Below, in pieces: positions 5,594 to 43,645 of a DNA stretch of 49,941 nt (positions are counted from its first letter, which is position 1; each line of letters begins with the position of its first letter). This DNA comes from Synechococcus sp. (GTDB lineage Bacteria > Cyanobacteriota > Cyanobacteriia > Thermostichales > PCC-7336), in assembly GCA_051439605.1 (NCBI GenBank), contig JBFRWN010000128.1, positions 1 through 49,941 of the forward strand, read 5' to 3'. The translations under genes were made by a program, and so were the position numbers. The notes beneath the pieces were generated by a model. The model did not search any database and was not told the origin of the DNA. It was given only the letters and a program-made list of their open reading frames with translations.

Positions 5594-6400
5594 TCAGGAT
5601 GACGAGCGTTCGGGAGGGCGGGACAATAGGGCGTCAAGTAGCTGGGATGAAGTGCTTAAAAATCCAAAACATTGATTGACATTATAGAAAGTCGCCTCTA
5701 AGCAATAGGTGGGGGAAGTGGTGGCCGTGCAGTCTTTGAGGAGTAAGCAGTCGTACCCCAAAAAATTGGCATCCTGCAGAGACACCATCACGCATTGATC
5801 GGCATTGACCCCCGCAAAAAACAGGGTGGAACGCCCAAGATTTCGCAAAATACTATCTAAAGGCGTATCCCAAAATCCACTCATGCGGTACTTATCAACG
5901 TGAATATCGGATGGGTCAAATGGCTGCAGTTCATCCACAACAGCAGCAGCCCAACTGTTGGCTTCTAACACTGGGGCACCATTTGTGGGTAAAGGATCCC
6001 CCAACCCAACTCCGTTGCCAGTGGGGTTATAAACATGTTGAGTGGCGGCACTAATATTCAGGAGGTCTGGACGATTGCCCCAATTGAGCCAAACAACGGG
6101 CACCCCTATTTGTCGCAGGTGAGGTAGCAAGGTTTGCAGCGGCGCGATCGGCGCGCGTGCTGGCATGACATCAACGCCGATGTGGGCGAGCCAACCATCC
6201 GGGTGGCAAAAGTCATTTTGCATATCCACAACAATCAGGGCGGATTTCGCCAAGTCTAAACGAATCTGCTTGCTGTCGGTTGTTAGGGTGATGGGTTGGC
6301 TAGGTAAGGGAGGACGAGTGATATCTGCGCTATCTCCATCCACCGACCAGGCATTGGGAGGGCAACCCAAAGAATGCTTTTGAGTTGGAGGTTGCATCAC
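5594..6400 (-). CDS. Cysteine hydrolase (isochorismatase/RutB-like amidase family)
   Basis: VVDMQNDF, KYRMSGFW, GVNADQCV give the Asp-Lys-Cys triad. Confidence 0.88.
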   Translation of the reverse strand: MMQPPTQKHSLGCPPNAWSVDGDSADITRPPLPSQPITLTTDSKQIRLDLAKSALIVVDMQNDFCHPDGWLAHIGVDVMPARAPIAPLQTLLPHLRQIGVPVVWLNWGNRPDLLNISAATQHVYNPTGNGVGLGDPLPTNGAPVLEANSWAAAVVDELQPFDPSDIHVDKYRMSGFWDTPLDSILRNLGRSTLFFAGVNADQCVMVSLQDANFLGYDCLLLKDCTATTSPTYCLEATFYNVNQCFGFLSTSSQLLDALLSRPPERSSS

Positions 6401-6704
6401 TCTTTCTCAAGTAACAAGTGCGGCACAGCGAAAGCGGACTCCCCGATCGCAATCTCTTGCGCATCAGAAATTATCGGCAATCAGTTTATCTAGGCTGCAG
6501 TGATATTCTGACTCCTTCTCGCTTAATGGGGACAAATTATTACTGCCTTTTAAGATTGCCACCAGCGGGTTGGTATAGCTGGGATTTATTGCTACAGGTG
6601 GTTGCCATAATTAGTTTCTGGTACTGGGATGCCATACCCTATTTTGCAAGCATCGCCTTGCTGCGCGATCGCAACTTTAGTTTTGTCTAGTTAGTCAGAA
6701 AACA

Positions 6705-6734
6705 GAAAAAACCTGAAGAGAGAGTGTCTTCAGG
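6705..6734 (-). terminator. Rho-independent terminator after operon copy 1
   Basis: Minus strand CCTGAAGA-cactctc-TCTTCAGG followed by TTTTTTCTGTTTT, about 80 nt after the TPR stop. Confidence 0.75.
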
Positions 6735-6814
6735 CCACATTCTGATAAACTGCACCTAACAATCTAAAGTGAGCAATCACTGCCATTATTAGATATTTGA
6801 AGGCACCTATAAGG

Positions 6815-7612
6815 CTACGAGAAGAGTCCTTCCATCACTGCTACTCTTTCAGGCTCACTCTTTTCTCCAAAATTCTCGGGTCTCTGTTCTTCTCCCATAT
6901 CATGCATATTTTGAGAAAGTTCTTTTGCTTTAGTGTAATACTCAATATTTCCACGTTCAAAGAATACTTTAGCAGCATCGCGCAGGTCGTCTACGGCAGC
7001 TTGTTTGTCACCCAAATCTAGATTTGCAATGCCGCGATTATAGTAGGCTTGAGCATTTCGGGGATCTTGAGTAACGGCTTCGCTATAATCCTGAACCGCT
7101 TCTCGCAAATCTCCTAGATGATGATGGCCAACTCCCCGAGTATAATAAGCATTTGTCAAAGAGGATCCGTTCAAAATTTGCTGGGTACAATTTTGCACGG
7201 TCCGCAAATACTTCGTGCTCGATCGTAAGTCGTCAATTTGACTGTCGTATTGTTCTAGTTCAAGGGCAACTCGCTTCGCTTCTGCATCCTGCTTGTGCAG
7301 TACGTTAGAGATTGCTTGACTTTGATTCTGTATCAGCTCCTCTTTTTGCGATGCGATTGTTGACTTGATGTTATCCACTTCGCAGGAAATCTGCTGCGAA
7401 ATTTGTCGACGATGACATACGCTTAACAGGGCAGTTGCAGAGAGGGGAATAGTCGCCAGCGCCACCTGCTGGAATACAATCGTAGCTAGCGACCCCCCAA
7501 AAGAAAGGACGACCGCACCATATTCCGCCGCACGAACCCAATTCTCTTGAAACCTGAATGGAGAATCAGTTTTTGGACTCTTTATGCGGGGCTTGATTTC
7601 TGGTTGAGACAT
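6815..7612 (-). CDS. Membrane-anchored TPR protein (Slr0151-like), copy 1
   Basis: N-terminal hydrophobic hairpin, Q/E-rich coiled coil, TPRs (AYYTRG..., AYYNRG...); paralogue of 12377..13192. Confidence 0.85.
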   Translation of the reverse strand: MSQPEIKPRIKSPKTDSPFRFQENWVRAAEYGAVVLSFGGSLATIVFQQVALATIPLSATALLSVCHRRQISQQISCEVDNIKSTIASQKEELIQNQSQAISNVLHKQDAEAKRVALELEQYDSQIDDLRSSTKYLRTVQNCTQQILNGSSLTNAYYTRGVGHHHLGDLREAVQDYSEAVTQDPRNAQAYYNRGIANLDLGDKQAAVDDLRDAAKVFFERGNIEYYTKAKELSQNMHDMGEEQRPENFGEKSEPERVAVMEGLFS

Positions 7613-7738
7613 GATAGGAAAACTCCAACTAATCGAAACAAATAACTAAAAAAAGAAAAACGTCGAGGAATACAACCACTAGCAAGACTTTATGAAATCG
7701 TTAGCCTTACTCTCTAGATCTCGTTCCTCTGACACGAA

Positions 7739-8218
7739 TCAAGAGCCTAAGATGGATTGATTTAGAGCAAGGATGGGCCGAACGTGAGGATGCTCTTCAG
7801 GATCTAGCTTCTCAAGAATTACATCAGTCTTAATCTGATGACTCACTCCAGTTAATTGTTTGCATTTTTGGGGCTTAGAGGACTGAATAATCGTGCGAGT
7901 CCACAGTAGTATCGACTGCTTTAAACGCTCTAGGTCGCCAGACAAAACAGTTGCAGCCGTATACCTTAAACTAATGTCTTGGTCTCGGCTAAACTTATCT
8001 TTGAAATTTTGGCCATTTTCAACAAAGTACTCTCTGTCGATATTCAAAATCTGCTGCTCGGTCTCTAGAGCGATAACTCCGCGTTGGTCGCGAAGCTTTC
8101 TATAAGCACTGACGCGCGTTTCGGATGAAGCAATATAGTCTCGGATAAAGCTGAGCTCTTCCTGATTGGCAAATCGTCCATCAGCCTGAAGTGTCAGCTG
8201 AGAAAGCTGATTGAGCAT
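7739..8218 (-). CDS. Allophycocyanin/phycobiliprotein-like globin-fold protein (Slr0149-like), copy 1
   Basis: ADGRFANQEEL N-terminus and RD...LRY...LSGD pattern; ATG at 8218 aligns with the paralogue start MLNQLSQL. Confidence 0.8.
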   Translation of the reverse strand: MLNQLSQLTLQADGRFANQEELSFIRDYIASSETRVSAYRKLRDQRGVIALETEQQILNIDREYFVENGQNFKDKFSRDQDISLRYTAATVLSGDLERLKQSILLWTRTIIQSSKPQKCKQLTGVSHQIKTDVILEKLDPEEHPHVRPILALNQSILGS

Positions 8219-8307
8219 TGGTTTTCTCCAAATCCATCTTGATTTTGAACGTTCAGCATAGTCAGGGAACGTTCTCGCTCCCTCCACTAAAGGCAGTAGC
8301 GTAAGGG

Positions 8308-8841
8308 CTACTCGACCCTGTCTGTATTGGCCAGTAATCGACCAATTTCTAACTGGGCAGTCTGCAATTCTTTGGCGACAGTGCGGGTGATCAGCTTGTA
8401 CTCTTCCACCATTACCTTTCCGGATAGAGGATGGAGAATATCTTCCTGGGCCCTTCGACCCACCAACTGCTCCACGTCGTCACTCTGGCTGAGATACATC
8501 CCCTCGGGAACTTCCACCTCAACCTCATTTCCAAGCACCCTTGCTTGACAAGATAGGCGAGAATTTTCGCCACACTGGGGCAACATCGACAGGGTACGCC
8601 TTTCGCGCCCCTGCACCGGACTCAAATTTTCGCCCCCTGCATTGACGTGAACGTGACAAGTAGCGCACATGCCGCGACCACCACATTCCTGCAGAATATT
8701 GAGCTTTTGAGCCAGTAATGCGGACAGCAGAGTTTCGTTGACAGGAATGGAAACCTGGGCGTTAACGGGTTCTATAAAGATGTTCGCCAAGGTAGCCTGA
8801 ACGGAGTTCTCTTGAAGAGGTTGTTGCAAGTCAACAGCCAT
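8308..8841 (-). CDS. 2Fe-2S ferredoxin with C-terminal extension (Slr0148-like), copy 1
   Basis: CGGRGMCATCH...RLSCQ adrenodoxin-type cysteine motif. Confidence 0.9.
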   Translation of the reverse strand: MAVDLQQPLQENSVQATLANIFIEPVNAQVSIPVNETLLSALLAQKLNILQECGGRGMCATCHVHVNAGGENLSPVQGRERRTLSMLPQCGENSRLSCQARVLGNEVEVEVPEGMYLSQSDDVEQLVGRRAQEDILHPLSGKVMVEEYKLITRTVAKELQTAQLEIGRLLANTDRVE

Positions 8842-8844
8842 GGG

Positions 8845-9522
8845 TTATTCCTCCTCGCCTGTAGTGAACAGACGACTGACGATTTCAGCGTGGGACTCTC
8901 CTGCTCTTACAGCGGCCTCCGCGACTTCGAGGCGAAGTTCGTTACCTACCAGATAGGTGTTGCAAGGACTCCCCATCGATTCGCAGGTGGTTTGCACGCA
9001 ATGGAGGGATTCGCCACTGAGTTGAGTAAAAAATGCACTAAAAAATCCCGCTTCCACTGAGCAACTAGGGCGATCGCGACGGACACTCGCTTGAGCAAAA
9101 GAGGATTGCCAAGTGCGAATCACCATCAATCCCTGCTCTCGATACTGGGAATCTAGTTCCACCTTTCCCCACCCATGGGCCTTCCAACAATGCTTCCAGG
9201 ACTGGAGAAAGTTGACCATCTCAAGTTCAGCCAAGGACTTTCCGTGGTATTCCCCCATTTCTCTGGCAAACCTGCGAAAGAAGTTCTTCCCCCACCAGCG
9301 GCCGCAGCTCCACAGCACCTGTTGAGAGGCCTCCCCCAATTCCTCTTCAATGCCATCCACAATTCCCTGCAGACACAAATCCGATAGAGCTAGCAGGCGA
9401 TCGCCCGAGCGGGTTGCGATTGTACCTGCTTCAAAATCCCCGCTGGCATAGGAATCCATCGAGTAATAGTTACTAGGAATTGCCGGTTTTTCGAGGAGAG
9501 TATTGACGTCAATAATTGCCAT
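8845..9522 (-). CDS. V4R-domain protein (Slr0147-like), copy 1
   Basis: HGWG, PSCSVEAGFFSAFF, CVQTTCESMGSPC V4R signature. Confidence 0.85.
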   Translation of the reverse strand: MAIIDVNTLLEKPAIPSNYYSMDSYASGDFEAGTIATRSGDRLLALSDLCLQGIVDGIEEELGEASQQVLWSCGRWWGKNFFRRFAREMGEYHGKSLAELEMVNFLQSWKHCWKAHGWGKVELDSQYREQGLMVIRTWQSSFAQASVRRDRPSCSVEAGFFSAFFTQLSGESLHCVQTTCESMGSPCNTYLVGNELRLEVAEAAVRAGESHAEIVSRLFTTGEEE

Positions 9523-9620
9523 TCTTTACACCTATCAAGGATTAGAACCAAATGTGTTGATAATTTTGTCAACCTGAAAGTCTCGACTAGTTACCTGAAA
9601 ATCAACGGTCTATTCATCCT

Positions 9621-10118
9621 TTAAGAGATGCTATTGACCTCTAAATGAGCAGATTCAAGTAGTAGTTGTCTAGCCTGTGCAAGATAAGGGGCCATCAACT
9701 TGATATCACTGCCTGACATATACTTCTTGAACCGGCGTCGAAGCATTTGGTCGAGACTATTTTCAATCTCTCTAAGCTCGTGAGCAGCCACTACTTCCGT
9801 CATCCACTCCAATAGGCGATAGCGCAGGAAATCAGGATCTTCAAGTAGCATGGCCATTGAGCAATAGCGCAGGACAAGAATCCAATGCTGTAAAGCTAAT
9901 TGCAGACGGCTTGGTGATTCTTTGGGATAGCGATCGTGTAACTCAATCGCCAGCCGTTGAAAAATTTTCGCTTCGTTTTCCCTCAACAGTTCGTAGAGGT
10001 CTAATCGAGACTCAAGACTCACAATAGAGCGCTCGAATTGTTCCAGATCTTCATCATTGAGATAACGATTTTCGGCTGTATAGAATAGCCTGCTGAGTGG
10101 ATCGATCATTTGGTTCAC
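9621..10118 (-). CDS. Phycobiliprotein-like globin-fold protein (Slr0146-like), copy 1
   Basis: AENRYLNDEDL N-terminus, VLRYCSMAMLLED; paralogue of 15244..15735. Confidence 0.78.
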   Translation of the reverse strand: MNQMIDPLSRLFYTAENRYLNDEDLEQFERSIVSLESRLDLYELLRENEAKIFQRLAIELHDRYPKESPSRLQLALQHWILVLRYCSMAMLLEDPDFLRYRLLEWMTEVVAAHELREIENSLDQMLRRRFKKYMSGSDIKLMAPYLAQARQLLLESAHLEVNSIS

Positions 10119-10171
10119 CTTACATTTACCGGAACAAAGTAGATATAAATATGCTGAAACTCTTTTAGGGA

Positions 10172-10474
10172 TTATGTAGAGTATTTTGTACTTGATTGCC
10201 GTCCAAACTCGTGGAAAAATCTGCCCACAGGCAGTGTCATTGGATTGGCAATTGGAAGATCTTTAGAGTCTCTAGCGAGATAGTTATCTACAAACTTCTT
10301 CTGTTTTACTTGCCAGTCAATATCGTGGAAGAATTGATCTAAAGAAGCACATCTCCAGTCATCATTTCTTTCCTCCAGCACAATATTTGACTGCAGAGAT
10401 AGCCGATCGCCATCCCAGGAAATATCTCCAAAAAAGCTACGAACGCTAGTCCGATAGGAAATTGCTACCCCCAT
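10172..10474 (-). CDS. Small hypothetical protein with three [VL]xxFF repeats (Slr0145-like position), copy 1
   Basis: ATG overlaps the upstream V4R stop (TAATG at 10476-10472); the paralogue at 15802..16104 conserves the repeats. Confidence 0.75.
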   Translation of the reverse strand: MGVAISYRTSVRSFFGDISWDGDRLSLQSNIVLEERNDDWRCASLDQFFHDIDWQVKQKKFVDNYLARDSKDLPIANPMTLPVGRFFHEFGRQSSTKYST

Positions 10475-11202
10475 TATCCCAAGCACTCCCCAGCAATCAG
10501 ACGTTTTTCAATATCTTTCGCCGTTGCCCCTTCTTCTAACCAAAAGCTAGCTGCATCTACACGATCCCGCTTGCCTAATAAAAACTTGCAGAAGGTCGAT
10601 CCCATCGAATAGCACTGTAACTCCACACAACCCAGTTTCTGATTGTTGAAGTTGCTAAAGAATCCTGCAAACAATCCAGCATAAATATGGCAAACGGGTT
10701 TACCAACGTTGCCCAGGGTACGAGCGACAGCAGAGTCGTAGATATTAATGGTCAAAAAGCCATTGTCACGATCTTCTAGATCGATATCCCAATTGCCCCA
10801 CCCTTGGGCAGTAAATGGCCACCACCAGGATTCCAGTACCAAGCCCAAATTCGTGGTGAGCAAGCTGCTCTTATATTCTTCTTCGTACCAACCCTTGAAA
10901 AACTTGGCATCTTTTTGCCCCCAGGATTTGCCAATGTTGTACATTACAACGCTGGAGGCATTGCCTACTTCTTCGTCTAGGCCATTAATTAAGCCGATAA
11001 TGAAATCTTCGCTGACGAAGATATTGCGAGATTTATTCCAGTCGGTAAAGGTGCCGATCTCGCGGTTGAGCTGGAAATAATCCTCAAAGCGATAGTGGGC
11101 ATGGAGCTGAGGATACAGCTCGCGTAAGGGGCGACCGGCCTTGCTGCCCGTTCGGCCGTCCTCCTCTGAAGTCGTATCGATAAAACCAGCAGTTGAGAGC
11201 AT
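10474..11202 (-). CDS. V4R-domain protein (Slr0144-like), copy 1
   Basis: WWWPFTAQGWG, PVCHIYAGLFAGFF, CVELQCYSMGSTFC; ATG at 11202 preferred over GTG at 11250. Confidence 0.88.
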   Translation of the reverse strand: MLSTAGFIDTTSEEDGRTGSKAGRPLRELYPQLHAHYRFEDYFQLNREIGTFTDWNKSRNIFVSEDFIIGLINGLDEEVGNASSVVMYNIGKSWGQKDAKFFKGWYEEEYKSSLLTTNLGLVLESWWWPFTAQGWGNWDIDLEDRDNGFLTINIYDSAVARTLGNVGKPVCHIYAGLFAGFFSNFNNQKLGCVELQCYSMGSTFCKFLLGKRDRVDAASFWLEEGATAKDIEKRLIAGECLG

Positions 11203-11404
11203 CGTCAGTGTCCTTCCCAGCGTAAAACTAGGGTCATGCAAATAGGGCACGGGATAGATCTGCTGGGTTCAACCCAACGACCTGATTCCCAGTTATCACC
11301 TAGGGAAATGCAGCGCCCACTTCAGCAGTTCGCCGAATGGCTTCTGTCCCAGAAACAACCGTCCCCCCTTTGACAAGCGGGATTGCCCCGCCCTGTCCAC
11401 ATTG

Positions 11405-11417
11405 ATTGGATACCCAG
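11405..11417 (-). promoter_or_regulatory. Conserved upstream element CTGGGTATCCAAT (possible SigF/SigB-type GGGTAT promoter element), copy 1
   Basis: Identical 13-mer at 17040-17052; about 205 nt upstream of the first start codon in both operon copies. Confidence 0.5.
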
Positions 11418-12376
11418 ACTTAGTAGTCTCGCTGGCCGCATTTACACGTACGCATTACCTTGCATTCTGCACACTTAACTGGCATTGATTTTGCAGAGAC
11501 AGCAAGATTTCCCACATCAAATTACAGATAAACTCGACAATTAATACATACTTGGAAGATTCGTAACGGATTTTCGAGTACAGACTTTCAGGGAGCCAGC
11601 TGAAGTTAAAAATCATTAAGCTTGTTGTCAAAAATTTTAGAGAAGAGAAGCTCAAACCCAATTGCAGCGTGAAGTTAAGCTGGTTTCTGGAAAGAATATA
11701 TATAGAGCAACCCCCACAGGCAAAACGCTGTGGGGTAAACGACGACCCTTTCTTTATTTACAAAACTTGACCGGAGGAGGTTGAGAAAAGATGGTTCCGG
11801 AAAATAGATAGGAACAACTGTATTTAGAGCTAGCAATGATGCTACTTTTATGTATCAGTAATCCCCACAGTAATAGCTGAAATATTTTGAGTATTACTTG
11901 AGGAATCTACTCCCATATCCTCCACGCATGAGAGCCGATTGCAATTCTTAGGGAGTCCAAGTTCGACTACGACATTGGGGAACATCCATCGCATCACTTC
12001 AAACTCATCCCGCTTAGCGCTATAAGCTTAGGCGACTCAACTATTTCAGGAAATATTCTTACAAATCCTGGTGATTTGACTTAAGAATATAAAAAAAACT
12101 TCAAATGCCTGTCAGGTTGAGGTTTGCTTCAATAATTGAGCGATTCATGGAGTGGAGTGATTCATGCTGTTGCAGCGATCGCATTCTATTGATGAACGCT
12201 ACGAACAGGGCTCGCTTACCAGCAAATTAAGCAGTTGATTACATCTTGAGGGCCACCGGCTGATAACACTGTAAGACGATAGCAACTGCTAATCTGCCTG
12301 GGTTGCCGTCGGCTAGGGCTATGCCTGAGCTACCCCAACTGAAATGGTTACTGATTTCGGGTCCATACAGCACACT

Positions 12377-13192
12377 CTAAGTAAACAGACCCTCCATAAC
12401 CACCAACTCGGGAGACTGGATGTCGTCATCGAAGCTTTCTGGGCTTTGCTGCTGCTCCAGTTGGTGCAAGTTGCTCGACAGTTCTTTTGCCTTGCTGTAA
12501 GACTCGATATTCCCCTCCTCAAAGAAGACCTTGGCTGCATTGCGCATATCCTCAACTGCTTCCTGCTTGTTGCCTAATTTTGCGTTTGCTTTACCACGGT
12601 TAAAGTAAGCTTTTGCATTTTTTGGATCTCGGGCGATCGCTTCGCTGTAATCCAGAATCGCTTCTTCCAAATCTCCCAGCCGATGGTGACCCATAGCTCT
12701 TAAGTAATAGGACGAGGAGGTGGGAGGATCGTTCAAAATTTGTTGCGTGCAATTTTGTACTGTCCTGAGGTTGAGAGCCACAGACTGCAAATTATTGAGT
12801 TGCTTGTCTGATTCTTGCACTTGTGATGCTATGGCAGCCATTTGTCGATCTTGCTTGCTCTGGAATTGCTCAAGCAGCTTCGTTTGCATCGAAATTATGG
12901 CCTCCTGGCTTTCAATTCTCTGCGTTTGGCTATCAAGTTGTTGCTTGCGATGGCAAAGACTAAGGGTTGCAGTAACCGACAGCGGAATTGCAGCCAGAGC
13001 AACCTGCTGCATCAATGCCGCGGCAATAGAGCCACCAAATGAAGCGACGATCGCCGCCCACTCAGCCGCTGCCAACCTGCTTTGCTTTTTACTTGAAGGA
13101 TGAGCCTGAGAATATGTTCCTAAAGTCTCAGAAGTTTTTAGATTTTCAGGAATGTCTAGATCTTTGGGAGACATAGCGTTCTGTTCTGACAT
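12377..13192 (-). CDS. Membrane-anchored TPR protein (Slr0151-like), copy 2
   Basis: Same architecture as 6815..7612; shares LRTVQNCTQQILN and the C-terminal VMEGLF. Confidence 0.85.
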   Translation of the reverse strand: MSEQNAMSPKDLDIPENLKTSETLGTYSQAHPSSKKQSRLAAAEWAAIVASFGGSIAAALMQQVALAAIPLSVTATLSLCHRKQQLDSQTQRIESQEAIISMQTKLLEQFQSKQDRQMAAIASQVQESDKQLNNLQSVALNLRTVQNCTQQILNDPPTSSSYYLRAMGHHRLGDLEEAILDYSEAIARDPKNAKAYFNRGKANAKLGNKQEAVEDMRNAAKVFFEEGNIESYSKAKELSSNLHQLEQQQSPESFDDDIQSPELVVMEGLFT

Positions 13193-13387
13193 GAATAAGA
13201 CTCCGAATGTTTGTGGCGTTAATCGTGGATGCTGGCTAGTGGAGAGCAGGTCTAAGTAAATGTGTTTTGACTATTTAGGCAAAAGATACGAGTGTAATTC
13301 TATCGATATCAATCCAGCATCATTTGACAAGAATACATACATCAATCTAAGAAAAGATAATATCTCCAGTTGACAATCTTAGAGTTA

Positions 13388-13867
13388 CTAGTTTGCGATA
13401 ATAGCTCGGTATAAATCAATTGTTGGTTTGACGTATTGTTGCTCATTAACTTCGAGATACTTACAAATAACGGCAAACTTCTCCTGATAGGACAAATCAG
13501 TCAACTTCCTGCATTTACTGGGTTTAGTCTTACTAATAATGGTGCGATACCACGATAGTAGTGATTGTTTGAGCCGTTCTAGATCGCCAGAAAGTACTGT
13601 AGCAGCAGTATATTTCAAGCTAATCCCTTGGTCGCGATGAAATACCATCTTGAAATCTTTGCCTTCACCAATGAAAATTTCTGGATCTATTTCCAACAAA
13701 CGTTGCTCCAGTTCAAAGGCAATATCAGAACGAAACTCCCTTAGCTTTTTATAAGCTTTCGTACGCATCTTTGCAGAGGCAATATAGTCTTGCAAAAATG
13801 ACAACTCCTCATCGGTGGCATATCGCCCGTCACAATCAACTGTGAGCTGTGATAATTGGTTGAGCAT
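13388..13867 (-). CDS. Allophycocyanin/phycobiliprotein-like protein (Slr0149-like), copy 2
   Basis: CDGRYATDEEL; ISLKYTAATVLSGDLERLKQS is almost identical to copy 1. Confidence 0.8.
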   Translation of the reverse strand: MLNQLSQLTVDCDGRYATDEELSFLQDYIASAKMRTKAYKKLREFRSDIAFELEQRLLEIDPEIFIGEGKDFKMVFHRDQGISLKYTAATVLSGDLERLKQSLLSWYRTIISKTKPSKCRKLTDLSYQEKFAVICKYLEVNEQQYVKPTIDLYRAIIAN

Positions 13868-13952
13868 CGTGTATTACTCCAAATCTTAGTAGTGCATTCA
13901 GGATTGATGGCTGATAAAACTCTTAACGCGAACCGTGACCTTGGGTTGGTAA

Positions 13953-14471
13953 TTAGACGCTATCGGTATTGGTTAAAAGGCGTGAAATTTCTAGCTGGGC
14001 TGCTTTCAATTCCTGGGCTACAGTGCGGGTAATGAGTTTGTACTCTTCCACCATCAACTTGCCGGACAGGGGATGAAGGATGTCTTCCTGAGCTCGCCGA
14101 CCAATGAGCTGTTCGATATCGTCCTTTGTGCTGAGGTACATCCCTTCGGGAACCTCAACCTCAATGTCTCCCCCCAGAACCCTGGCCTGACAAGAGAGTC
14201 GAGAATTCTCGCCACATTGGGGCAGCATCGATAAGGTTCGTCTCTCCCGCCCTGCTATCGGAGAGAGGTTCTCAGCCCCTTTATTAACGTGCACATGGCA
14301 GGTTGCGCACATTCCGCGGCGATCGCATTCCTGTAAGATATTGAGTCTTTGGGAGAGTAACGCAGTCAACAACGGTTCATTTTCTTGGACGGACACACGG
14401 GCGTTAACCGGTTCGATTTTGACAGTAGCCATGGTTTTCTTAGATTGGCTGACTTGGCTCTCGGTCATCAT
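13953..14471 (-). CDS. 2Fe-2S ferredoxin with C-terminal extension (Slr0148-like), copy 2
   Basis: CDRRGMCATCH...RLSCQ; all four ligand Cys present. Confidence 0.88.
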   Translation of the reverse strand: MMTESQVSQSKKTMATVKIEPVNARVSVQENEPLLTALLSQRLNILQECDRRGMCATCHVHVNKGAENLSPIAGRERRTLSMLPQCGENSRLSCQARVLGGDIEVEVPEGMYLSTKDDIEQLIGRRAQEDILHPLSGKLMVEEYKLITRTVAQELKAAQLEISRLLTNTDSV

Positions 14472-14477
14472 GTTCTA

Positions 14478-15149
14478 TTACTCCTCTGCTAGATTTGGAC
14501 ATAGACGAAGCAGGATTGTGGTGTGAGATTCTCCTTCTCTCACCCCAGCATCAGCGGGCTTGAGGCGGTCTTCGTTGCCCACAATAAATGTGTTAAACGG
14601 AACCCCCATCGATTCACAAGTGGTTTGGACGCAGTGCAGCGCTTCCCCACTTAGCTGAGTAAAGAAGGCGCTCAAAAATCCCGATTCCACAGCACAGTTG
14701 GGTCGGTCGTGGTTGCGGGCAGCCCGCGCAAAGGAGGAGTTACTTGTGCGTACGACGATGAACCCCTGGTCTCGATACTGCATATCCAGTTCGAGGCTGC
14801 CCCAGCCGTGTGTCTTCCAACATTGCTTCAGGGATTGCAAGAATTCCACCATCTCCAGTTCGATGAATGGCTTCTGGTGGTAGGAACTCAAGCCCTGAGA
14901 AAATCTGCGGAAAAAATTTCTCCCCCACCATTGACCGCAACTAAATAAAACTTGGTGGGACGCTTCCCCCAATTCCTCTTCTATACCCGCATATATCCCC
15001 TGTAGAAAGTTGTCGGGCAAGGATAACAATCTGGATCCAGCGCGGTCTTCTAACAAACCGGCCTCGAAGTCTCCTTTCACGTAAGCATCTGTCGCAAAGT
15101 AATTACTTGGAATACTCGCTTCGCTAAGTAAGTTGCTGATATCAAGCAC
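14478..15149 (-). CDS. V4R-domain protein (Slr0147-like), copy 2
   Basis: HGWG, PNCAVESGFLSAFF, CVQTTCESMG; GTG start. Confidence 0.85.
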   Translation of the reverse strand: MLDISNLLSEASIPSNYFATDAYVKGDFEAGLLEDRAGSRLLSLPDNFLQGIYAGIEEELGEASHQVLFSCGQWWGRNFFRRFSQGLSSYHQKPFIELEMVEFLQSLKQCWKTHGWGSLELDMQYRDQGFIVVRTSNSSFARAARNHDRPNCAVESGFLSAFFTQLSGEALHCVQTTCESMGVPFNTFIVGNEDRLKPADAGVREGESHTTILLRLCPNLAEE

Positions 15150-15243
15150 AATCGTTAAAACCTTTTAGTGGGTGGACTGAGGGAATACGCTTGGGGGACG
15201 CTAGCCACAAAAACATTGGCGGGTGAGTCTACTGCGGTAAGTA

Positions 15244-15735
15244 CTACTTAAACTGGAAGGCGAAGTTTGAGTCTGCGGCTTCAAGGAGTGTTTCTTTCGC
15301 CAACATCAGATAGGGATTTAGCAGTTCTATTTCTTCGCTAGATAGAAATTTCTTGAGTCGCCGCTTTAGCAGTTGAAAGAGAGAGCCTTCAACATCTTGT
15401 AGGTTGTGGGCCACAATCACTTCTGGCAACCATTCCAACAGGCGATATTTGAGAAAGTCAGGGCTATCGATCAGCATGGCCATCGAGCAGTAGCGCAACA
15501 CCAGAATCCAGTGTTTCAGAGCCTGCTGCAGGCGCTGCGGAGATTCTTTGGGATATTCTTCTCGCAGGCTCAGGGCAACACGCTGAAATATTTTTTCCTC
15601 GCTTTCTCGCAGTTGTCTGTAGAGATTGAGGCGAGTTTCTAAGTTTTCGACAGAGGTCTCAAAGAAATCTAGATCGCTGTCTTTAAGATAGTTGTCCTGG
15701 GCTGCGTGAAACAGGATGTTTAATTGATCGAGCAT
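15244..15735 (-). CDS. Phycobiliprotein-like globin-fold protein (Slr0146-like), copy 2
   Basis: AQDNYLKDSDL, HWILVLRYCSMAML. Confidence 0.78.
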   Translation of the reverse strand: MLDQLNILFHAAQDNYLKDSDLDFFETSVENLETRLNLYRQLRESEEKIFQRVALSLREEYPKESPQRLQQALKHWILVLRYCSMAMLIDSPDFLKYRLLEWLPEVIVAHNLQDVEGSLFQLLKRRLKKFLSSEEIELLNPYLMLAKETLLEAADSNFAFQFK

Positions 15736-15801
15736 GAATCAACCTTGAAAAACTTCGGGTAAAACCCAGCGCACTGGGTCAACAGGTAACAATGAGAGCT
15801 A

Positions 15802-16104
15802 TCAACTGACTTTTCTTGGGGATGCGAGTTGGCCAAACTCTCGGAAGAAATGACCCACAGGCATTGCCATAGGGTGAATTACAACAATGGAGGTATGAGT
15901 GGAGGCAAAGGTCTCGCGTCTTCGAGTCCAATCCATATCCCCAAAAAAACTCTCGATTGAAGTACAACGCCAGTTAGCTGCATCTACCGACCCATCGGCT
16001 TGAGCAACTGAATCCGTTGAAGACTTCGAGGTGATTCCTGACCAGGTAATGTCATTAAAAAAGCTAGTGACAGTCATGCAGTAGGGGGAAAGCAATGCGG
16101 TCAT
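15802..16104 (-). CDS. Small hypothetical protein with three [VI]xxFF repeats, copy 2
   Basis: ATGA overlap with the upstream V4R stop; repeats TVTSFFNDITW, SIESFFGDMDW, PVGHFFREFG. Confidence 0.75.
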   Translation of the reverse strand: MTALLSPYCMTVTSFFNDITWSGITSKSSTDSVAQADGSVDAANWRCTSIESFFGDMDWTRRRETFASTHTSIVVIHPMAMPVGHFFREFGQLASPRKVS

Positions 16105-16832
16105 CCTAGATACTCCCCATTGATCAAGCGCTTCTGAACGTCTTTCGCAGTGGCTCCTTCTTCAAGCCAGAAATTGGCGGCATCCACCCGATCTTGTTTG
16201 CCCAGGAGGAATTTGCAGTAGGTGGAACCCATGGCGTAACACTGCATCTCTACGCAACCCAGATCTTTATTGCTGAAATTGCTGAAAAATCCTGCAAACA
16301 GACCTGCATATATATGGCAGACTGGCTTACCGACGTTACCGAGGGTACGGGCTACTGCGGAATCAAAAATATTGAGGAAGATGAAACCGTTTTTCTGATC
16401 TTGCAAGTCAACATCCCAATTTCCCCACCCCTGCGCGGTAAAAGGCCACCACCAGGATTCCAGCACTAAAGCTAAATCGGTGGTAAGCATGTTGGTTTCG
16501 TACTCTTCTTCGTACCAGTTCTTGAAGAAGTCAGCATCCTGCTTTCCCCAAGCTTTGCCGATGTTGTAGAGAACAATATTGGATGCACTACCGACTTCTG
16601 CATCCAGCCCTTGCATGAGACCAATGATGAAATCTTCGCTAACAAGGATGTTGCGGGATTGGTTCCAGTCGGTCAGGGTTCCCTTTTGGCGATCGAAGTG
16701 GAAAAAGTCTTCGAATCGATAGTGTGCGTGAAGCTTGGGAAAGAGATCGCGCAGACTTTTACCAGAATTTTGCCTCAATTTATCAAATGTGGTTTTGGAG
16801 GCTGTATCAGTCTTTCTAGGTGTTGCAACCAT
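16101..16832 (-). CDS. V4R-domain protein (Slr0144-like), copy 2
   Basis: Core highly similar to 10474..11202; GAGG RBS upstream of ATG. Confidence 0.88.
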   Translation of the reverse strand: MVATPRKTDTASKTTFDKLRQNSGKSLRDLFPKLHAHYRFEDFFHFDRQKGTLTDWNQSRNILVSEDFIIGLMQGLDAEVGSASNIVLYNIGKAWGKQDADFFKNWYEEEYETNMLTTDLALVLESWWWPFTAQGWGNWDVDLQDQKNGFIFLNIFDSAVARTLGNVGKPVCHIYAGLFAGFFSNFSNKDLGCVEMQCYAMGSTYCKFLLGKQDRVDAANFWLEEGATAKDVQKRLINGEYLG

Positions 16833-17039
16833 TATTTCCTCTTTGGATAAAATCCTAGAAGTATCAGCAGTGAAGTAGTTTTACAAGACGAACTACTCCG
16901 TAAGGCCGATATTTCTGGCTCGTGGGGTGTTTTTTTTTAATTAACCAATAGGTACCCCGTCAACGACCCAGAAAGGTTGCAGACAAGGCATCAGATGGAA
17001 GAACAAATGCGCTGACAACCAGATGGGCCACGCATAGTA

Positions 17040-17073
17040 ATTGGATACCCAGGTCCCCAAGGGATAGATCTGC
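17040..17073 (-). promoter_or_regulatory. Conserved upstream elements GCAGATCTATCCC and CTGGGTATCCAAT, copy 2
   Basis: Both 13-mers also occur upstream of copy 1 (11251-11263 and 11405-11417). Confidence 0.5.
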
Positions 17074-18164
17074 GTATTTCTTCTAACGTTGAAAGATATC
17101 AGTATATTTTTTAACAAATAGTAATATGTTCTTGAGTACCGTTATCCCCCCGATCTCGGTCTAGCTAGTCTTAAAATTTTCCAGATCCAATCTGAGTCTT
17201 TGTGTCAATGAAAGAGCGCAAACCCTTTATAGGTAAATCTTTCAATGCCCAATCTCGTTCAGATTATGGGTTAGATAAGAAGAATCAACGAAGAATCTTC
17301 AAAGCTTAACTGTCGCTACGTTGCTACGAGAAAGCATCAGTGTTTTGCCTCAGCGATTCCGCAATACTACCGACAAATAAACTTATATGAAGCCGAAATA
17401 TTAAGCAAAGCTTACACTGCGGCTTTTCTTTTTGCCTTTACCAGCAATCCTCTTCAGGCAATGTGCTGAGCTTTGCAGTCGGCAGCTTCACGGTTATTTA
17501 CTACCCCCTCAGGGCAACCTTAGATAGTTAAAGTTTTGCAAAGATAATACATATAATGTTAATACTCCTGGTATAATTTCATTATTTTCTTAAAAAAACC
17601 ATCTTTTTTGCATTAGTATTAAAGTCTCTTTGATTCGTTTTTTGCCAAAATGAACGCCTCCGACACATGCACCGGAGGCTAATTGCTCGTAAATTCAAGC
17701 TTTGCGAATTAGCGGGGCCTAAGGGCTTATGAAACGCTTTCTCAAAAACTACGAGGTACTGTTTTTGGGTATAGAACTGACATCCAGAGAAATCTTTCCT
17801 GCGGATACAGTCTCCGACATTTGATGTCTGAATGAGTGTGCTATGCCTAGCCTTGGATTGGGGCGGCTAAACTGTCACAAGCGACTGGACGCTCGGCATG
17901 GCTCGTGGAGGCTATCAGCAAGAGGGACCTGTCTCTAATGCCAATCCTTGGATGCCAATAACCTTCAGATATAAAGGTTCTGTACCCCAAAGGATTGATA
18001 TTCAAAGGACGACTCCCCACAATTGAGTACTGCATCAGATGCATTATGCATTGGGTCCGAGATAACATCACGTTGGCTAGGTCACTCCAAGCCCTTGGTG
18101 GGATTGAACCAGCGTTGTGGCAACCTCATAGACGCTCTGGTCGAGGTCATCAACTGAACGACTT

Positions 18165-18302
18165 ACCGTTAGTTCGATAGGGTCTTCTAATTGCGAGACT
18201 GTCCTGAGAAAGCGATGAAGAAACCGGTTTTTGAACTCTCTTGCTTCCCTCCCCCAATGTGGGAGAAGAGGGGCTGGGGGTGAAGGCTATCGAACTCAGG
18301 TT
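18165..18302. repeat. MITE-like / dispersed cyanobacterial repeat
   Basis: 10-bp inverted repeat AGTTCGATAG (18171-18180) / CTATCGAACT (18287-18296) encloses a CCCTCCCCCAA..GGGAGAAGAGGGGCTGGGGGTGA C/G-rich hairpin of the kind seen in cyanobacterial small dispersed repeats. Confidence 0.55.
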
Positions 18303-18382
18303 GAGTTACAGCACCAGAGATGAAATCTTGAAATGTCGTCTAACTGTACGTCTAGCTATAGGGCTGTTATCGCAAGCGCGAA

Positions 18383-18985
18383 TCAATCAGAGTTTTCGGC
18401 CGGGGCCAGTTTCGACATCTGCCACCCTAACGTGGTAAATCGCTCTGCAGCATCCTCCAGTTCAACCGGAACTACAGCTGATAAAATGTCCTCTGGCATG
18501 ACCATGACCCGCAGAGCCGCCAGGGGCACCTGTAAAAATAAATTCGCCCCCAAAAATCCGATCGCCGCGATCGCAATGCGGCTCAACCCTGCGCCAGGAG
18601 CTATACGTACAGGCGACCAAGCCTCCACCAGAGGGGCAAGGTGGTATGCATCAATCAGAAAGCAAAACAGGAGAACGGCGATCGCCACAGACAAAAAACG
18701 CTGCTCCTTGGCCTGGAATGCCCCCAAGATTTGCCGCCGCTGTTTGTCTAGACAATCGGTGGGAACCGCCATAAACAAAAGGCTAAAGATATTGAAAGGC
18801 CGCCACAGCTGCATCGCCAACACCGGACCAATTCCCAAAAGCGCGATCGCGATTAACTCCAAACCAGCAGGCAAAAACGGTTCGCCACTGGCTAAGCCCA
18901 ACAGACATACTCCCATCCACAGCGGGAACACCAACATCCCTGCAACGTGAATCCATAGATAGGGTTCGAACCAGCTTTTAGGCAC
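18383..18985 (-). CDS. Conserved cyanobacterial membrane protein ('low-complexity tail membrane protein' family)
   Basis: EPYLWIHVAG, MQLWRPFNIFSLL, NLFLQVP motifs; about 4 TM helices. Confidence 0.7.
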   Translation of the reverse strand: MPKSWFEPYLWIHVAGMLVFPLWMGVCLLGLASGEPFLPAGLELIAIALLGIGPVLAMQLWRPFNIFSLLFMAVPTDCLDKQRRQILGAFQAKEQRFLSVAIAVLLFCFLIDAYHLAPLVEAWSPVRIAPGAGLSRIAIAAIGFLGANLFLQVPLAALRVMVMPEDILSAVVPVELEDAAERFTTLGWQMSKLAPAENSD

Positions 18986-23214: not shown

Positions 23215-23667
23215 CTACGACTCGCCCTCCGGCCGATACAGCACCACATTCTCCTGTTCGTTGGCATCGTTGCGGGACACAATCGCCTTGGCCGCTTCCG
23301 TCTCGCTGAGATTAAACGGCTGGTGGGGAACGCCAGCAGGAATAAACAGAAAATCGCCTGTCTGGTTCACCTGCGATCGCCGCAAACCTTCTCCGTAAAA
23401 GGTTTTAACGGTGCCATCCAGAATATAAATAGCCGTTTCGTAGTCGCGGTGGAAGTGAGGTTCTGCTGAGCCTCCGGGGGGAATCACCACTAAGTTCATC
23501 GATATGCCCGTCGACCCAGCAGTATCGGCAGAAATGCCCACGAAGTAGGGCAGCTGTTGCCGAGTCAACGTTTCCGAATCAGGGCGCACTGTCGTGATGT
23601 CGGCCTCGAAATCGGGCTGTGCGAAGGTTTCATCTTGAGGTCTGGGAGACCGATCGCCACTCATCAT
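23215..23667 (-). CDS. RmlC-like cupin protein
   Basis: PHFHRDYETAIY...GDFLFIPAGVPHQP. Confidence 0.85.
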   Translation of the reverse strand: MMSGDRSPRPQDETFAQPDFEADITTVRPDSETLTRQQLPYFVGISADTAGSTGISMNLVVIPPGGSAEPHFHRDYETAIYILDGTVKTFYGEGLRRSQVNQTGDFLFIPAGVPHQPFNLSETEAAKAIVSRNDANEQENVVLYRPEGES

Positions 23668-24698
23668 CCACTCCCCTGAATCGAAAGCGCATTTGCCTGC
23701 TTCACTAACAAGAGAGCACTCGCTACAGGCGTTTTCCCTATGATATCCACCTCGACAGCAGGAGTATCCCGGCGCTCTAGATCGTAGGTATAGGTCTTGT
23801 CGTAATAGGGCAAAATCGCGTCGATCGCCGGCAAGACTTCCCCCTGCTCCAGGTGGGCGATCGCGGTTTGGGTGCGCTGCCCCCCCAAACGCTTGCGAAT
23901 CCGTTGGGTGGCGGCAATCAACCCTTCAATATCTGACTCTCCGTACATTTCAGAGATGGTTTCAATCCGCTCCTGCCGCGATCTGCGTACCCGAATAACA
24001 GGAGCCGCCTCCATCTGTGCAAACACGGCGGCGGGGATGCGACAGCTTCCCACCGCCCGACTTTCTGCTTCTAGCCAAACACGGCGGCGGGGATCCAGCT
24101 GATGCCATTCCATCGCCAACTTGTTTTCAAACTGCTCGGTGGAGGGCTGATCGGGTAACCCCAATGCTCCGTAGCTGCTGCCTCGATGATTGGCCAACCC
24201 CTCCAAGTCAATAATTTGTTCTCCCAACCGTTCCAACGCCTGCAAAATATAGGTTTTTCCCGAGCCCGTCATCCCCCCCAGCAATATCACCGGTCGGGGG
24301 AGCTGCAGCTGTTGCAAACACCAGCCGCGAAACGCTTTGTATCCCCCTTCTAGTAGGGAAACTTTCAGACCCGCCGTTTGCAGCAGCCAACCCATCGAGG
24401 CACTGCGCATCCCCCCTCGCCAGCAATGCAACCGCACCTGGCGATCTCCCGCGAGTCGTTTGGCCCGCTTAACAAATGACGCACATTTAGGGCCAACTAT
24501 CTCAAAACCCAGCTCCACCGCCTGCTCCCGTCCCTCGTGCTTGTAGCAGGTGCCAACCTCCGCCCGTTCCTCATCGCTAAACAGCGGAAAGTTCATCGCA
24601 CCAGGGATATGAGCCCGTGCAAATTCCCCTGGACTGCGAACATCCAAAATAGGGCCGGGGACAGCCAAAAAATCAGAGATGGATAAGGGGGACAGCAC
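23664..24698 (-). CDS. mnmH: tRNA 2-selenouridine(34) synthase
   Basis: Rhodanese DVRSPGEF/HCWRGGMRS, P-loop GMTGSGKT, LANHRGSSYG, EAESRAVG. Confidence 0.92.
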   Translation of the reverse strand: MLSPLSISDFLAVPGPILDVRSPGEFARAHIPGAMNFPLFSDEERAEVGTCYKHEGREQAVELGFEIVGPKCASFVKRAKRLAGDRQVRLHCWRGGMRSASMGWLLQTAGLKVSLLEGGYKAFRGWCLQQLQLPRPVILLGGMTGSGKTYILQALERLGEQIIDLEGLANHRGSSYGALGLPDQPSTEQFENKLAMEWHQLDPRRRVWLEAESRAVGSCRIPAAVFAQMEAAPVIRVRRSRQERIETISEMYGESDIEGLIAATQRIRKRLGGQRTQTAIAHLEQGEVLPAIDAILPYYDKTYTYDLERRDTPAVEVDIIGKTPVASALLLVKQANALSIQGSG

Positions 24699-24978
24699 GG
24701 TTCGATGTGTGTGGTAATGACCTCCAACTCAACCCAATTATCGAGTCAACGAAGACCGGATGCTCGGATATAGAAGAGGAAGTTTACCATTGTATCTTTC
24801 CGGGTTGTCAGGCTTTTTTCGACAATTGGCCTCTAACTGAAATGACTGAGATGGATACTGCGATCTACGAACTACCTTCAGCGGTAGAACAATTTAAAAC
24901 ATTAAGTATGTTCGTGAATAACACAAATCTGCAGCTTGGATGTACTAATATTCTTTAAATCATTGCTGGCTATTGGGT

Positions 24979-25584
24979 ATGAATCAAAAAATTGGAGAAA
25001 CCCTAGTAGCCGCAGGATTGCTTTCTGAAGCGCAAATCCAGGTAGCCCTAGCCGATCGAGAGTTTTATCAGGGGCAATATCGCACCGGAGATGTCTTAGC
25101 GATGCGGGGGTGGGTGAAAGACACAACTGTGGACTTTTTTGTCGATCTTTTTCCCCAGTTGCTCGACAGCCCCAGGCTGAAAATTGGAGAATATTTGACC
25201 CTGGCAAACATATTGACTGTCACTCAGGTGGAAGAGTTGCTAATCGAGCAACGTCAGTGCGGCGTTCGTCTGGGGGCACTGGCAGTGATGCGGGGATGGC
25301 TCAAGCAAAAAACGTTAGATTTTTTCCTGGAGCACCTCTTTCACGCCCAAAAACAACAATCGGACTTGGGGATGCGGGTCAAGTTAACGAACGATCGATT
25401 GGCTGGGCCAGCAACCGCTTCTCAAGAACAATCAAACACGATCGAACTTTGCGGTAGCGTTTATAACCTAGATGAGATGGACAAGGTAGATGACACAGAT
25501 GACATAGAAGAACTCATCGACCTAGACGATATGGAAGACGAACCGGATCCCGAACTTCAGGAAGACCCCTGGGTTTTTGGCTGA
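24979..25584 (+). CDS. Stand-alone MshEN-repeat protein with acidic tail (putative c-di-GMP receptor)
   Basis: KIGETLVAAGLL..QI..AL, RTGDVLAMRGW, KIGEYL, RLGALAVMRGW; paralogue at 43765..44430. Confidence 0.7.
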   Translation: MNQKIGETLVAAGLLSEAQIQVALADREFYQGQYRTGDVLAMRGWVKDTTVDFFVDLFPQLLDSPRLKIGEYLTLANILTVTQVEELLIEQRQCGVRLGALAVMRGWLKQKTLDFFLEHLFHAQKQQSDLGMRVKLTNDRLAGPATASQEQSNTIELCGSVYNLDEMDKVDDTDDIEELIDLDDMEDEPDPELQEDPWVFG

Positions 25585-33470: not shown

Positions 33471-33671
33471 TCAAGGGGAATTACAGTACCGGGAAATTGT
33501 GGCTGCAAGCCCGTCTTCACCGGCTATGTATAGTATTGAAAACGCTCCGAACAGAAAGCGTTCTATTCCTCTCCTCCTGACGCCGTTCTCCTTCGGAAGA
33601 AATGTTGCCAGGCTAAACAGCAAAAGCCCCAAGCAGAAATATACCGCTTTCATAAATGGTCTTAAAACCAC
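33471..33671 (-). CDS. Possible small membrane protein
   Basis: 66-aa ORF with two hydrophobic stretches filling the gap; no recognised motif. Confidence 0.3.
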   Translation of the reverse strand: MVLRPFMKAVYFCLGLLLFSLATFLPKENGVRRRGIERFLFGAFSILYIAGEDGLAATISRYCNSP

Positions 33672-43539: not shown

Positions 43540-43583
43540 GGTTCGCCTCCAAAACGTTGTGTAAGGTTTTCCAACGGACAATG

Positions 43584-43645
43584 AGGCGCGTTCCTTCGGG
43601 AGAAAATCCCTACTTCCGTCTCCTCAGAAGGGGAGATGAACGAAT
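43584..43645 (-). promoter_or_regulatory. Glutamine riboswitch (glnA RNA motif, class I)
   Basis: P1 CGUUC/GAACG, P2 UCUCC/GGAGA, GGA-AGUA...GAA E-loop, P3 GGGA/UCCC, followed by CGCC. Confidence 0.9.

Follow-up and report, generated by a model that had tools for sequence, protein, structure and literature searches.

The window analyzed here, a stretch of 49,941 nucleotides, contains two intact, collinear seven-gene copies on the minus strand, copy A at 12377-16832 and copy B at 6815-11250, with all 14 open reading frames present, as the original prediction had proposed. The copies are adjacent and lie head to tail, and both are complete and share one architecture, with Pfam domains in the order V4R, no match, Phycobilisome, V4R, Fer2, Phycobilisome, and TPR in each. 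Gene spacers range from -4 to 195 bases, which is compatible with an operon. Because of the alignment to copy A, the likely starts in copy B were revised to ATG 11202 (V4R-A), 10474 (small protein), 10109 (globin A), and 8218 (globin B), replacing longer GTG frames; the V4R-A start was also preferred because metagenome run X3 has a one-base insertion at 11230. A search of the source genome (G000) found no third V4R, globin, small protein, or ferredoxin gene elsewhere.

Both copies are recognizable as the published cyanobacterial slr0144-0149 plus slr0151 (pap/BBAG) operon, based on domain content, gene order, and trees with fetched homologs (the Synechocystis proteins themselves were left out of the alignments). 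The match to the order of slr0144-slr0151 that had been proposed for this locus holds, as does the absence of the second ferredoxin (slr0150) and the kinase (slr0152) from both copies: each has a single Fer2 domain, and no kinase domain occurs among the scanned proteins of the window. A seven-gene form without fed4 (slr0150), its defining feature, is known as cluster e* (PMC4284462). Both copies have the one-strand gene order of cluster e*, lack fed4 and the kinase, carry a Fed5-type ferredoxin, and nest accordingly in trees.

Proteins encoded by the two copies

V4R-A (Slr0144-like) has 243 residues in copy A (16101..16832, minus strand; PF02830) and 242 residues from ATG 11202 in copy B (10474..11202, minus strand; Pfam and alignment), where the longest frame begins at GTG 11250. 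Its putative Zn ligands, C172, E195, C198, and C206 in copy A, are all invariant in 53/53 sequences and are the same in copy B; we take this Cys/Glu/Cys/Cys set to be the Zn-binding residues of PoxR/MopR/DmpR-type V4R domains. The model of copy A V4R-A (pLDDT 84) has 5frx as its top Foldseek match (E 4e-8, TM 0.54), and the protein sits in a 26-member clade of seven-gene-type clusters (support 100/99). V4R-B (Slr0147-like; 223 residues, 14478..15149, PF02830 in copy A; 225 residues, 8845..9522, Pfam in copy B; both minus strand) is about 28% identical to V4R-A, and column counts over 53 rows show its metal site to be degenerate (C, Q, C, N) in both copies. This Cys-less site was rejected as a difference between A and B, being common to the family or genus. 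Also rejected were BchJ 4-vinyl reductase (19 bits versus a cut-off of 74.3) and MsvR (40 bits versus 220).

Globin A (Slr0146-like; 163 residues, 15244..15735, PF00502 in copy A; 162 residues, 9621..10109, Pfam in copy B; both minus strand) has Ala at the bilin site and no Cys in either copy. Globin B, which is Slr0149-like and of the cyanobacterial BBAG type, has 159 residues in copy A (13388..13867; model and alignment) and 159 from ATG 8218 in copy B (7739..8218; Pfam and alignment), again on the minus strand. The copy A model (pLDDT 91) reaches TM 0.80 to allophycocyanin, and alignment puts Phe76 in the column of the allophycocyanin chromophore Cys. Phe replaces this bilin-binding Cys in both copies and in all genus relatives, which makes covalent bilin binding at that site unlikely, and globin B in the source genus also carries a three-residue insertion. 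Phe76 was likewise discarded as a difference between the copies, since it is common to the family or genus. A change from Cys to an aromatic residue was seen in 33 of 103 sampled globin B sequences. Light-harvesting allophycocyanin was rejected as an identity on the missing chromophore Cys and the ApcA model score (19.7 bits versus a cut-off of 270); the true phycobiliproteins of the genome score 151-203 bits versus 41-47 for the operon globins. Because neither globin of either copy has a bilin-binding Cys, the tetrapyrrole handling that had been suggested is weakened for this lineage.

The small Trp/Phe-repeat protein (Slr0145-like), assigned in copy A from its repeats and locus comparison, has 100 residues in each copy (15802..16104 in A; 10172..10474 from ATG 10474 in B, where the longest frame starts at GTG 10486; minus strand) and no Pfam or NCBIfam match. 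Both copies of it are without the acidic C-terminal Leu-Phe tail that most relatives have. The 2Fe-2S ferredoxin (Slr0148/Fed5-like, adrenodoxin/ISC type) has 172 residues with a C-terminal extension in copy A (13953..14471; PF00111) and 177 in copy B (8308..8841; Pfam), both on the minus strand, and its best PDB matches, ISC ferredoxin 1i7h and putidaredoxin, identify it as adrenodoxin-like (Fed5). All four cluster Cys are found in 43/43 homologs. The cluster loop is the usual Gly-Gly in copy B and Asp50-Arg51 in copy A, with Asp50 in 1/43 and Arg51 in 3/43 homologs. Bulky residues in this loop also occur in E. coli ISC ferredoxin. Every metal ligand is identical between the two copies. The last gene encodes a Slr0151-like TPR protein of 271 residues in copy A (12377..13192; TPR_1/TPR_2, two TPRs and an N-terminal hydrophobic stretch) and 265 in copy B (6815..7612; Pfam), both minus strand and both with a C-terminal Leu-Phe tail. 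N-terminal 19-residue hydropathy maxima of 1.65-1.67 give modest support to a TPR membrane anchor, the membrane tether of the original prediction.

Upstream regions, divergence and origin

Noncoding regions of 1550 bases (copy A) and 1174 bases (copy B) precede the operons. They had been described as separate and longer than 1 kb, which they are; they give no blastn alignment, but they share two exact 13-base words, one of which contains a conserved 10-base element. On the minus strand this element lies at 17041..17050, 218 bases before the V4R-A start of copy A, and at 11406..11415, 213 bases before ATG 11202 of copy B. The identical word is found at -216 in the congener G001 and -231 in G003, with a related word in G005/G006; it keeps its distance from the start, about 215 bases in copies A and B, in 4/4 genus upstream regions, and a related word does so in 2/2 family regions. 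Exact matches in the genome number 11, and only the two at the operons fall outside long open reading frames. Compared with the motif in PMC2532724, the element resembles a SigF/SigB-type -12 promoter box, which for SigF is of the GGGTA type. By eye, no -32-like word was seen beside it, and the four SigB/F/G-like factors of the genome all score below cut-off. Of 40 first-gene loci, 8 contained a GGGTA(A/T) word in the searched interval, 6 of which belong to this family (shuffle mean 4.1, maximum 10), and the element is not shared throughout the family. A promoter and terminator scan stayed at chance level (12 versus 16.4; 16 versus 11.8), and an Rfam search of 6300-18400 gave no match. Within that scan, a terminator-like hairpin was recorded 3' of the copy B TPR gene (6736-6710). 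The retention of one element upstream of both copies points to shared regulation, while the lack of alignment apart from the two 13-base words means that regulation may differ.

Over 1271 aligned codons, copies A and B share 61.1% amino acid identity, with 68.9/79.2/39.8% identity at codon positions 1/2/3 and 33.6% (109/324) at fourfold sites, in keeping with the earlier observation that silent sites had diverged and protein cores been kept. Identity per gene varies, with V4R-A at 71%, the TPR protein at 51%, and the small protein at 36%. Nei-Gojobori estimates give pS of 0.73-0.86 and dN of 0.19-0.73; dS is undefined for 5/7 genes and is 2.6 and 3.5 in the remaining two, so that no numeric dN/dS is obtainable because silent sites are saturated. 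The contrast of 79% identity at position 2 with 34% at fourfold sites indicates that both copies are still under purifying selection. Among the 40 differences listed, of 178 in other populations, 11/18 changed codons are silent with 0 nonsense changes, and 4/4 indels fall outside open reading frames. The two copies evolve at similar rates (91 versus 106 unique changes, p=0.29). These values agree with an old duplication kept under selection, as had been proposed.

Against the single-copy ortholog in G001, copy A has 64% and copy B 61% identity, compared with 61% between A and B. The A/B split is genus-level, and its age is close to that of the separation from G001. One copy could alternatively be a xenolog from a congener, inserted beside the resident copy and not duplicated in place. 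In the V4R-A tree copy B joins G001/G003 and not copy A (support 99/89), and a weak grouping of the same kind is seen in the trees for globin B, for V4R-B, and for the concatenation. However, an A+B clade is not rejected (AU p=0.11), an ancestral tandem pair collapsed to one copy in G001 would yield the same tree, and GC is 46.6% in both copies and in the G001 operon with no adjacent mobility gene; composition marks neither copy as recently foreign. The trees leave the branching order of A, B, and G001 unsettled (AU p 0.11 and 0.23), and we regard a xenologous origin as possible but doubtful. Such an origin would leave the function much as in the reading given below.

Proposed function and competing explanations

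Our preferred explanation, to which we assign a probability of about 60%, is that these are two paralogous pap/BBAG (cluster e*) copies separated by a genus-level split, both selected, that serve as mainly redundant thylakoid helper modules. It draws on the operon identity, intactness, selection, age, folds, ligand residues, Cys loss, and upstream element from this analysis and takes the photosystem II link from the literature; from these points onward, complex formation, expression, co-regulation, and dosage are inferred. At the thylakoid, each copy would build the same accessory module. Its small-molecule-binding core would consist of the Zn-binding V4R-A and the metal-degenerate V4R-B, both of the phenol-sensor fold, with the ferredoxin coupling this core to redox state or passing electrons. 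The two phycobiliprotein-fold globins would act as partners with no covalent bilin attachment at the usual site, and the TPR protein may connect the module with intermediates of photosystem II assembly and repair. Ligand or redox sensing would fit these folds. One type of promoter probably drives both copies, which would make the pair mainly a dosage or back-up duplicate, although 61% identity makes pure redundancy hard to maintain and some specialization plausible.

A stronger form of specialization, in which the copies differ in ligand, redox potential, or expression condition, is in our view unlikely. It would account for the rare loop residues of the copy A ferredoxin, the low identity of the small and TPR proteins, and the mostly unalignable upstream regions, and it has a parallel in Acaryochloris marina, whose three 'apcA' genes, two of them within such clusters, differ in oxygen response (PMC5295598; PMC6002478). 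Yet all metal ligands and Phe76 are common to both copies, the bulky loop residues have their E. coli counterpart, and the upstream element is the same. The divergence of A from B is like that of each from G001, so nothing beyond age needs explaining. The two functional variants of the original prediction are therefore weakly supported, given these shared features and the similar rates.

It is less likely still that the module of this genus was rebuilt to be bilin-independent (Phe site, globin B insertion, lost small-protein docking tail) and then retained as two complete, insulated complexes of paralogs that are controlled by an alternative sigma factor and whose ferredoxins differ in potential. 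If true, it would offer a natural experiment parting V4R-ferredoxin function from bilin binding, and matched pairs for subunit contacts.

That one copy is silent or decaying is very improbable. The runs listed include no RNA run, the copy B V4R-A branch is longer (0.36 versus 0.13), and the copy B TPR gene has 3 non-silent versus 2 silent among the changes listed; against this, 14 frames are intact despite saturated silent sites, the upstream element is retained, and intact genes closely related to globin B of copy B (88%) and to V4R-B of copy A (91%) occur in other samples.

The host is a marine-sediment cyanobacterium known solely from sediment metagenome runs. Contigs of run X1, which may be the source of the assembly, tile the stretch of the two copies without joints; their depth is 29-36 and they overlap by 30 bases, one piece (11450-14315) crossing the copy junction and the next being 10381-11479. 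Run X2 covers 30/30 bins of the stretch, and run X3, from a separate study, contains both copies with almost no cover at 11514-12014. The window has 0 N bases, and a repeat search found only paralogous coding repeats. A metagenome scan returned one locus (L105, 3.5 kb), too short to reveal a tandem. The even, joint-free cover by public contigs means that this is not an assembly artifact, and a chimera of two related species can be set aside as extremely improbable: the genome is in 143 contigs with 4.12% contamination and no contig on its own reaches from end to end of the stretch, but an X1 piece crosses the junction, X2 covers every bin, X3 contains both copies, and no long identical repeat is common to A and B.

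Relation to known clusters and significance

This window does not settle how the pap/BBAG cluster works biochemically; its value is comparative. With two full copies that are equally selected and 61% identical, it offers ready material for cross-complementation and partner-specificity work in Synechocystis. The frequency with which an aromatic residue replaces the Cys of globin B suggests that the cluster is kept for something other than covalent bilin binding, and the C-terminal Leu-Phe tail that small and TPR proteins have in common is a candidate docking motif that can be tested for the whole family.

The locus had been put forward as the window's best candidate for an uncharacterized system; this does not stand, since the seven-gene form is published and PMC10151467 describes the cluster as "duplicated in others", with full or partial duplications and adjacent genes often absent. 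Extra operon copies were thus known before, and what appears to be new is limited to the side-by-side arrangement and some details specific to the lineage; no tandem pair was found in the openly licensed literature, including the sections of PMC10151467 used here. The same gene order occurs in G001, in family kin, and in 17-19/80 further loci. Copy counts across cyanobacteria showed that multi-copy genomes are common (17/29 order-mates, 7/72 phylum carriers) but tandem in none of those sampled, so that only the layout is unusual. G001 has a single copy and the complete genome of the congener G002 has no operon, which makes not just the second copy but the whole operon dispensable.

The V4R proteins have a fold and, in V4R-A, a Cys/Glu/Cys/Cys pattern in common with the PoxR/MopR/DmpR phenol sensors, but are stand-alone, without an ATPase or DNA-binding domain, and only 17% identical. 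The cyanobacterial BBAG cluster of PMC10151467 matches in its core, an Fe-S protein, one V4R from each of two clades, and a globin, and similarly has no adjoining bilin reductase or heme oxygenase. The CXRD Cys of the bilin-binding proteins BBAG-1 and BBAG-3 is missing from all four globins here; the same paper reports that BBAG-2 binds bilin without CXRD and that photosystem roles may belong to slr0150-slr0152 and not the core genes. Slr0151 binds CP43 and D1, according to work cited in PMC4853703. The Synechocystis PCC 6803 operon slr0144-slr0151 (PMC4853703, PMC4195498) and cluster e* have the same order of V4R, small protein, globin, V4R, ferredoxin, globin, and TPR; the locus here differs in its two full head-to-tail copies, the Phe at the globin B chromophore Cys, and the lost small-protein tail. 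At least two diverged clusters per genome are also found in Acaryochloris marina (PMC4284462, PMC6002478), for which three cluster e* loci are tabulated (PMC4284462), in order-mates, and in genomes of family f20. In those genomes the clusters are dispersed and often partial or differing in architecture, whereas here they are complete, adjacent, and alike.

Structure and maintenance of the two copies

Gene calls and Pfam bear out the original prediction of two complete, intact, and collinear minus-strand operons. Copy A extends from 16832 to 12377 and copy B from 11250 to 6815, and each is an intact run of seven genes whose products match, in order, V4R, no domain, Phycobilisome, V4R, Fer2, Phycobilisome, and TPR. 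Inner ATGs at 11202, 10474, 10109, and 8218 are probably the starts of four copy B genes. No third copy was found in the host genome.

The tandem pair is real, and the assembly artifact that had been considered as an explanation is not seen in the contigs of the sequencing runs. Twelve DNA runs contain the window wholly or partly, all of them marine sediment metagenomes from three studies, and four were examined. Contigs of run X1, a possible source, tile the window at a depth of 29-36 without joints, one piece spanning 11450-14315. Run X2 covers 30/30 bins of the window, and X3, from a different study, has both copies, with 11514-12014 barely covered. Among the 40 of 178 differences that were listed, those within the 14 genes affect 18 codons (11 silent, 7 non-silent, 0 nonsense), and all 4 listed indels fell outside genes. 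At 18267-18305, all four runs have loose contig ends and X2 has a depth jump; this short element is probably a dispersed genomic repeat.

The copies are 36-77% identical gene by gene and 61.1% identical across 1271 codons, with 79% identity at codon position 2 and 109/324 identical fourfold sites. Pairwise dN/dS comparison gave dN values of 0.19-0.73 per gene with silent sites saturated, a combination which argues that both copies have long been under purifying selection and which agrees with the predicted old duplication kept by selection.

A 10-base word is common to the upstream regions of copy A (-218), copy B (-213), and the congeners G001 (-216) and G003 (-231), with a related word upstream in the family kin G005 and G006. 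The copy A and copy B upstream regions are otherwise unalignable, having 2 words of at least 12 bases in common (shuffle mean 0.08; 2/300 shuffles reach 2). Among 11 exact genome matches to the 10-base word, the copy A and copy B sites are the sole 2 outside long ORFs. In sequence it is similar to the SigF -12 and SigB -10 boxes described in PMC2532724; no -32 box is evident, and it is not enriched outside the host family. Four SigB/F/G-like sigma factors occur in the host genome (contigs C44, C90, C114, and C56; 183-200 bits, below the cut-off).

Elsewhere in the window, a glutamine riboswitch (43585-43644) lies directly upstream of a DUF4278 gene (43273-43581, minus strand), and a CyVA-1 RNA match scores above gathering (33560-33639, minus). 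Two stand-alone proteins have paired MshE-related cyclic-di-GMP-binding motifs (24973-25584, plus; 43765-44430, minus), a cellulose-synthase-like gene with a PilZ domain (2-2434) runs off the window start, and tRNA 2-selenouridine synthase MnmH (23664-24698, minus) is above cut-off.

Copy number and origin of the pair

V4R-A is present in 73/401 phylum genomes. Besides the host there are 72 carriers, and 7 of them contain two or three V4R-A genes, which lie on different contigs or more than 500 kb from one another. At the order level it is found in 27/30 genomes, and two copies occur in 17/29 others, either on different contigs or with 270 kb or more between them. None of 60 fetched regions contained a second V4R-A, nor did any of the 80 best among 235 further loci (50 of the 80 span at least 17 kb). 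A few genomes recur in more than one surveyed set, and kin are not independent. These counts indicate that several copies per genome are ordinary, while a complete head-to-tail pair is rare. On the original question of whether tandem pairs are common and already characterized, multi-copy genomes are common and the operon is published, but no other tandem pair appeared among the surveyed loci. The literature searched yielded no report of one, the available parts of PMC13446030 and PMC4195498 being silent on tandem arrangement. Three loci (L062, L069, and L089) are partial second clusters of V4R-A and two Cys-bearing globin B genes, the first cluster in each of these genomes having no globin B. 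Outside the class, three loci of family f36 (L078-L080) have clusters of ferredoxin, V4R-A, globin, and V4R-B; these globins have no Cys, and the residue in or beside the chromophore position is Val or Ser.

G001 has one copy with the same upstream neighbors as copy A, the G003 operon locus breaks off at a contig end, and no operon match was found in the complete genome of the congener G002. Phylogenetic analysis placed copy A, copy B, and G001 in one clade separate from family kin (support 100/100). Fourfold-site identity is 33.6% for A-B, 32.7% for A-G001, and 31.2% for B-G001, an equal saturation akin to that of flanking orthologs (35.1%). The trees tend to put copy A on the earliest branch and to group copy B with G001/G003 (99/89 for V4R-A, weaker in other trees), but an A+B grouping is not rejected (AU p=0.11). 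An ancestral tandem pair later collapsed to one copy in G001 fits this pattern, as does acquisition of one of the copies from a congener. Other samples contain close kin of each copy type, at 88% to the globin B of copy B and 91% to the V4R-B of copy A. The A/B event is distinct from the two-cluster state of order-mates, the V4R-A proteins of which sit in other clades. In the V4R-A tree of L031-L090, seven-gene operons of the host family and of the order-mates G021/G024 fall within a group from distant families (100/99) and apart from the two cluster types that the remaining order-mates carry, perhaps through horizontal acquisition or paralog loss.

Protein features

Fold comparison gives V4R-A the fold of PoxR/MopR sensors. 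Its C172, E195, C198, and C206 are invariant in 53/53 rows, and we take them, from that family, to have a putative zinc role. V4R-B has C, Q, C, and N at the matching positions (paralogs matched by eye) in both copies and most homologs. The ferredoxin is of the adrenodoxin/ISC type, with four Cys in 43/43 and a conserved C-terminal extension.

Globin B is predicted to fold like allophycocyanin (TM 0.80), its CXRD column aligning with the chromophore Cys. That column holds Phe in both copies, G001, and 8/8 database matches. In a set of 103 globin B sequences it is Cys in 69, Trp in 27, Phe in 4, Tyr in 2, and Thr in 1. In globin A, 22/137 sequences have Cys at this site, and copies A and B have Ala (two outlier globins were left out before counting). 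By these counts and the common Phe, Cys loss is recurrent and predates the copy split. Since BBAG-2, in the available part of PMC10151467, binds biliverdin without a CXRD motif, globin B may by analogy bind bilin through another route.

By pattern match, a Leu-Phe-type tail ends 18/22 TPR proteins and, among 51 small proteins found, 40/47 outside the genus, and is absent in 4/4 small proteins of the host genus. A Slr0151 primer quoted in PMC4853703 (partial text), translated by hand, encodes the same tail type. Across L031-L090, an acidic Leu/Met-Phe tail closes the small Trp-repeat and TPR proteins and, in some order-mates, the product of an additional globin-like gene; it is possibly a shared docking motif.

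Proposed role and relation to known operons

In the reading that we favor, at a probability of about 0.6, the two copies are co-regulated and largely redundant, each encoding a V4R-ferredoxin-globin helper module that is tethered to the thylakoid and carries no covalent bilin at the usual site. The V4R proteins, ferredoxin, and globins would form the tethered complex, both copies would be expressed and co-regulated, the pair would act through dosage, and the module would assist photosystem II assembly and repair; the available part of PMC4853703 summarizes a photosystem II link of the operon. That the copies are instead functionally specialized variants of one module seems rather improbable, though the unusual Asp50-Arg51 loop of the copy A ferredoxin points that way, as do Acaryochloris marina paralogs differing in oxygen response (PMC5295598, in part).

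The likening to Synechocystis slr0144-slr0151 was correct, both copies being the slr0144-slr0149 plus slr0151 operon. The description as an uncharacterized system is not supported: the gene set, with fed4 absent, is that of cluster e*, the form without fed4 defined in PMC4284462, which tabulates three copies in A. marina. In PMC10151467 the globins are called cyanobacterial BBAGs and the cluster is traced back to bilin-reductase clusters in other bacteria; the paper also describes loss of the cluster from many genomes and its full or partial duplication in others, with adjacent genes often missing. Duplicates are likewise recorded in PMC6002478 and PMC13174344 (all four sources as available in part). 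The window holds a real new instance of a known operon type, of which the complete head-to-tail layout is the rare part.
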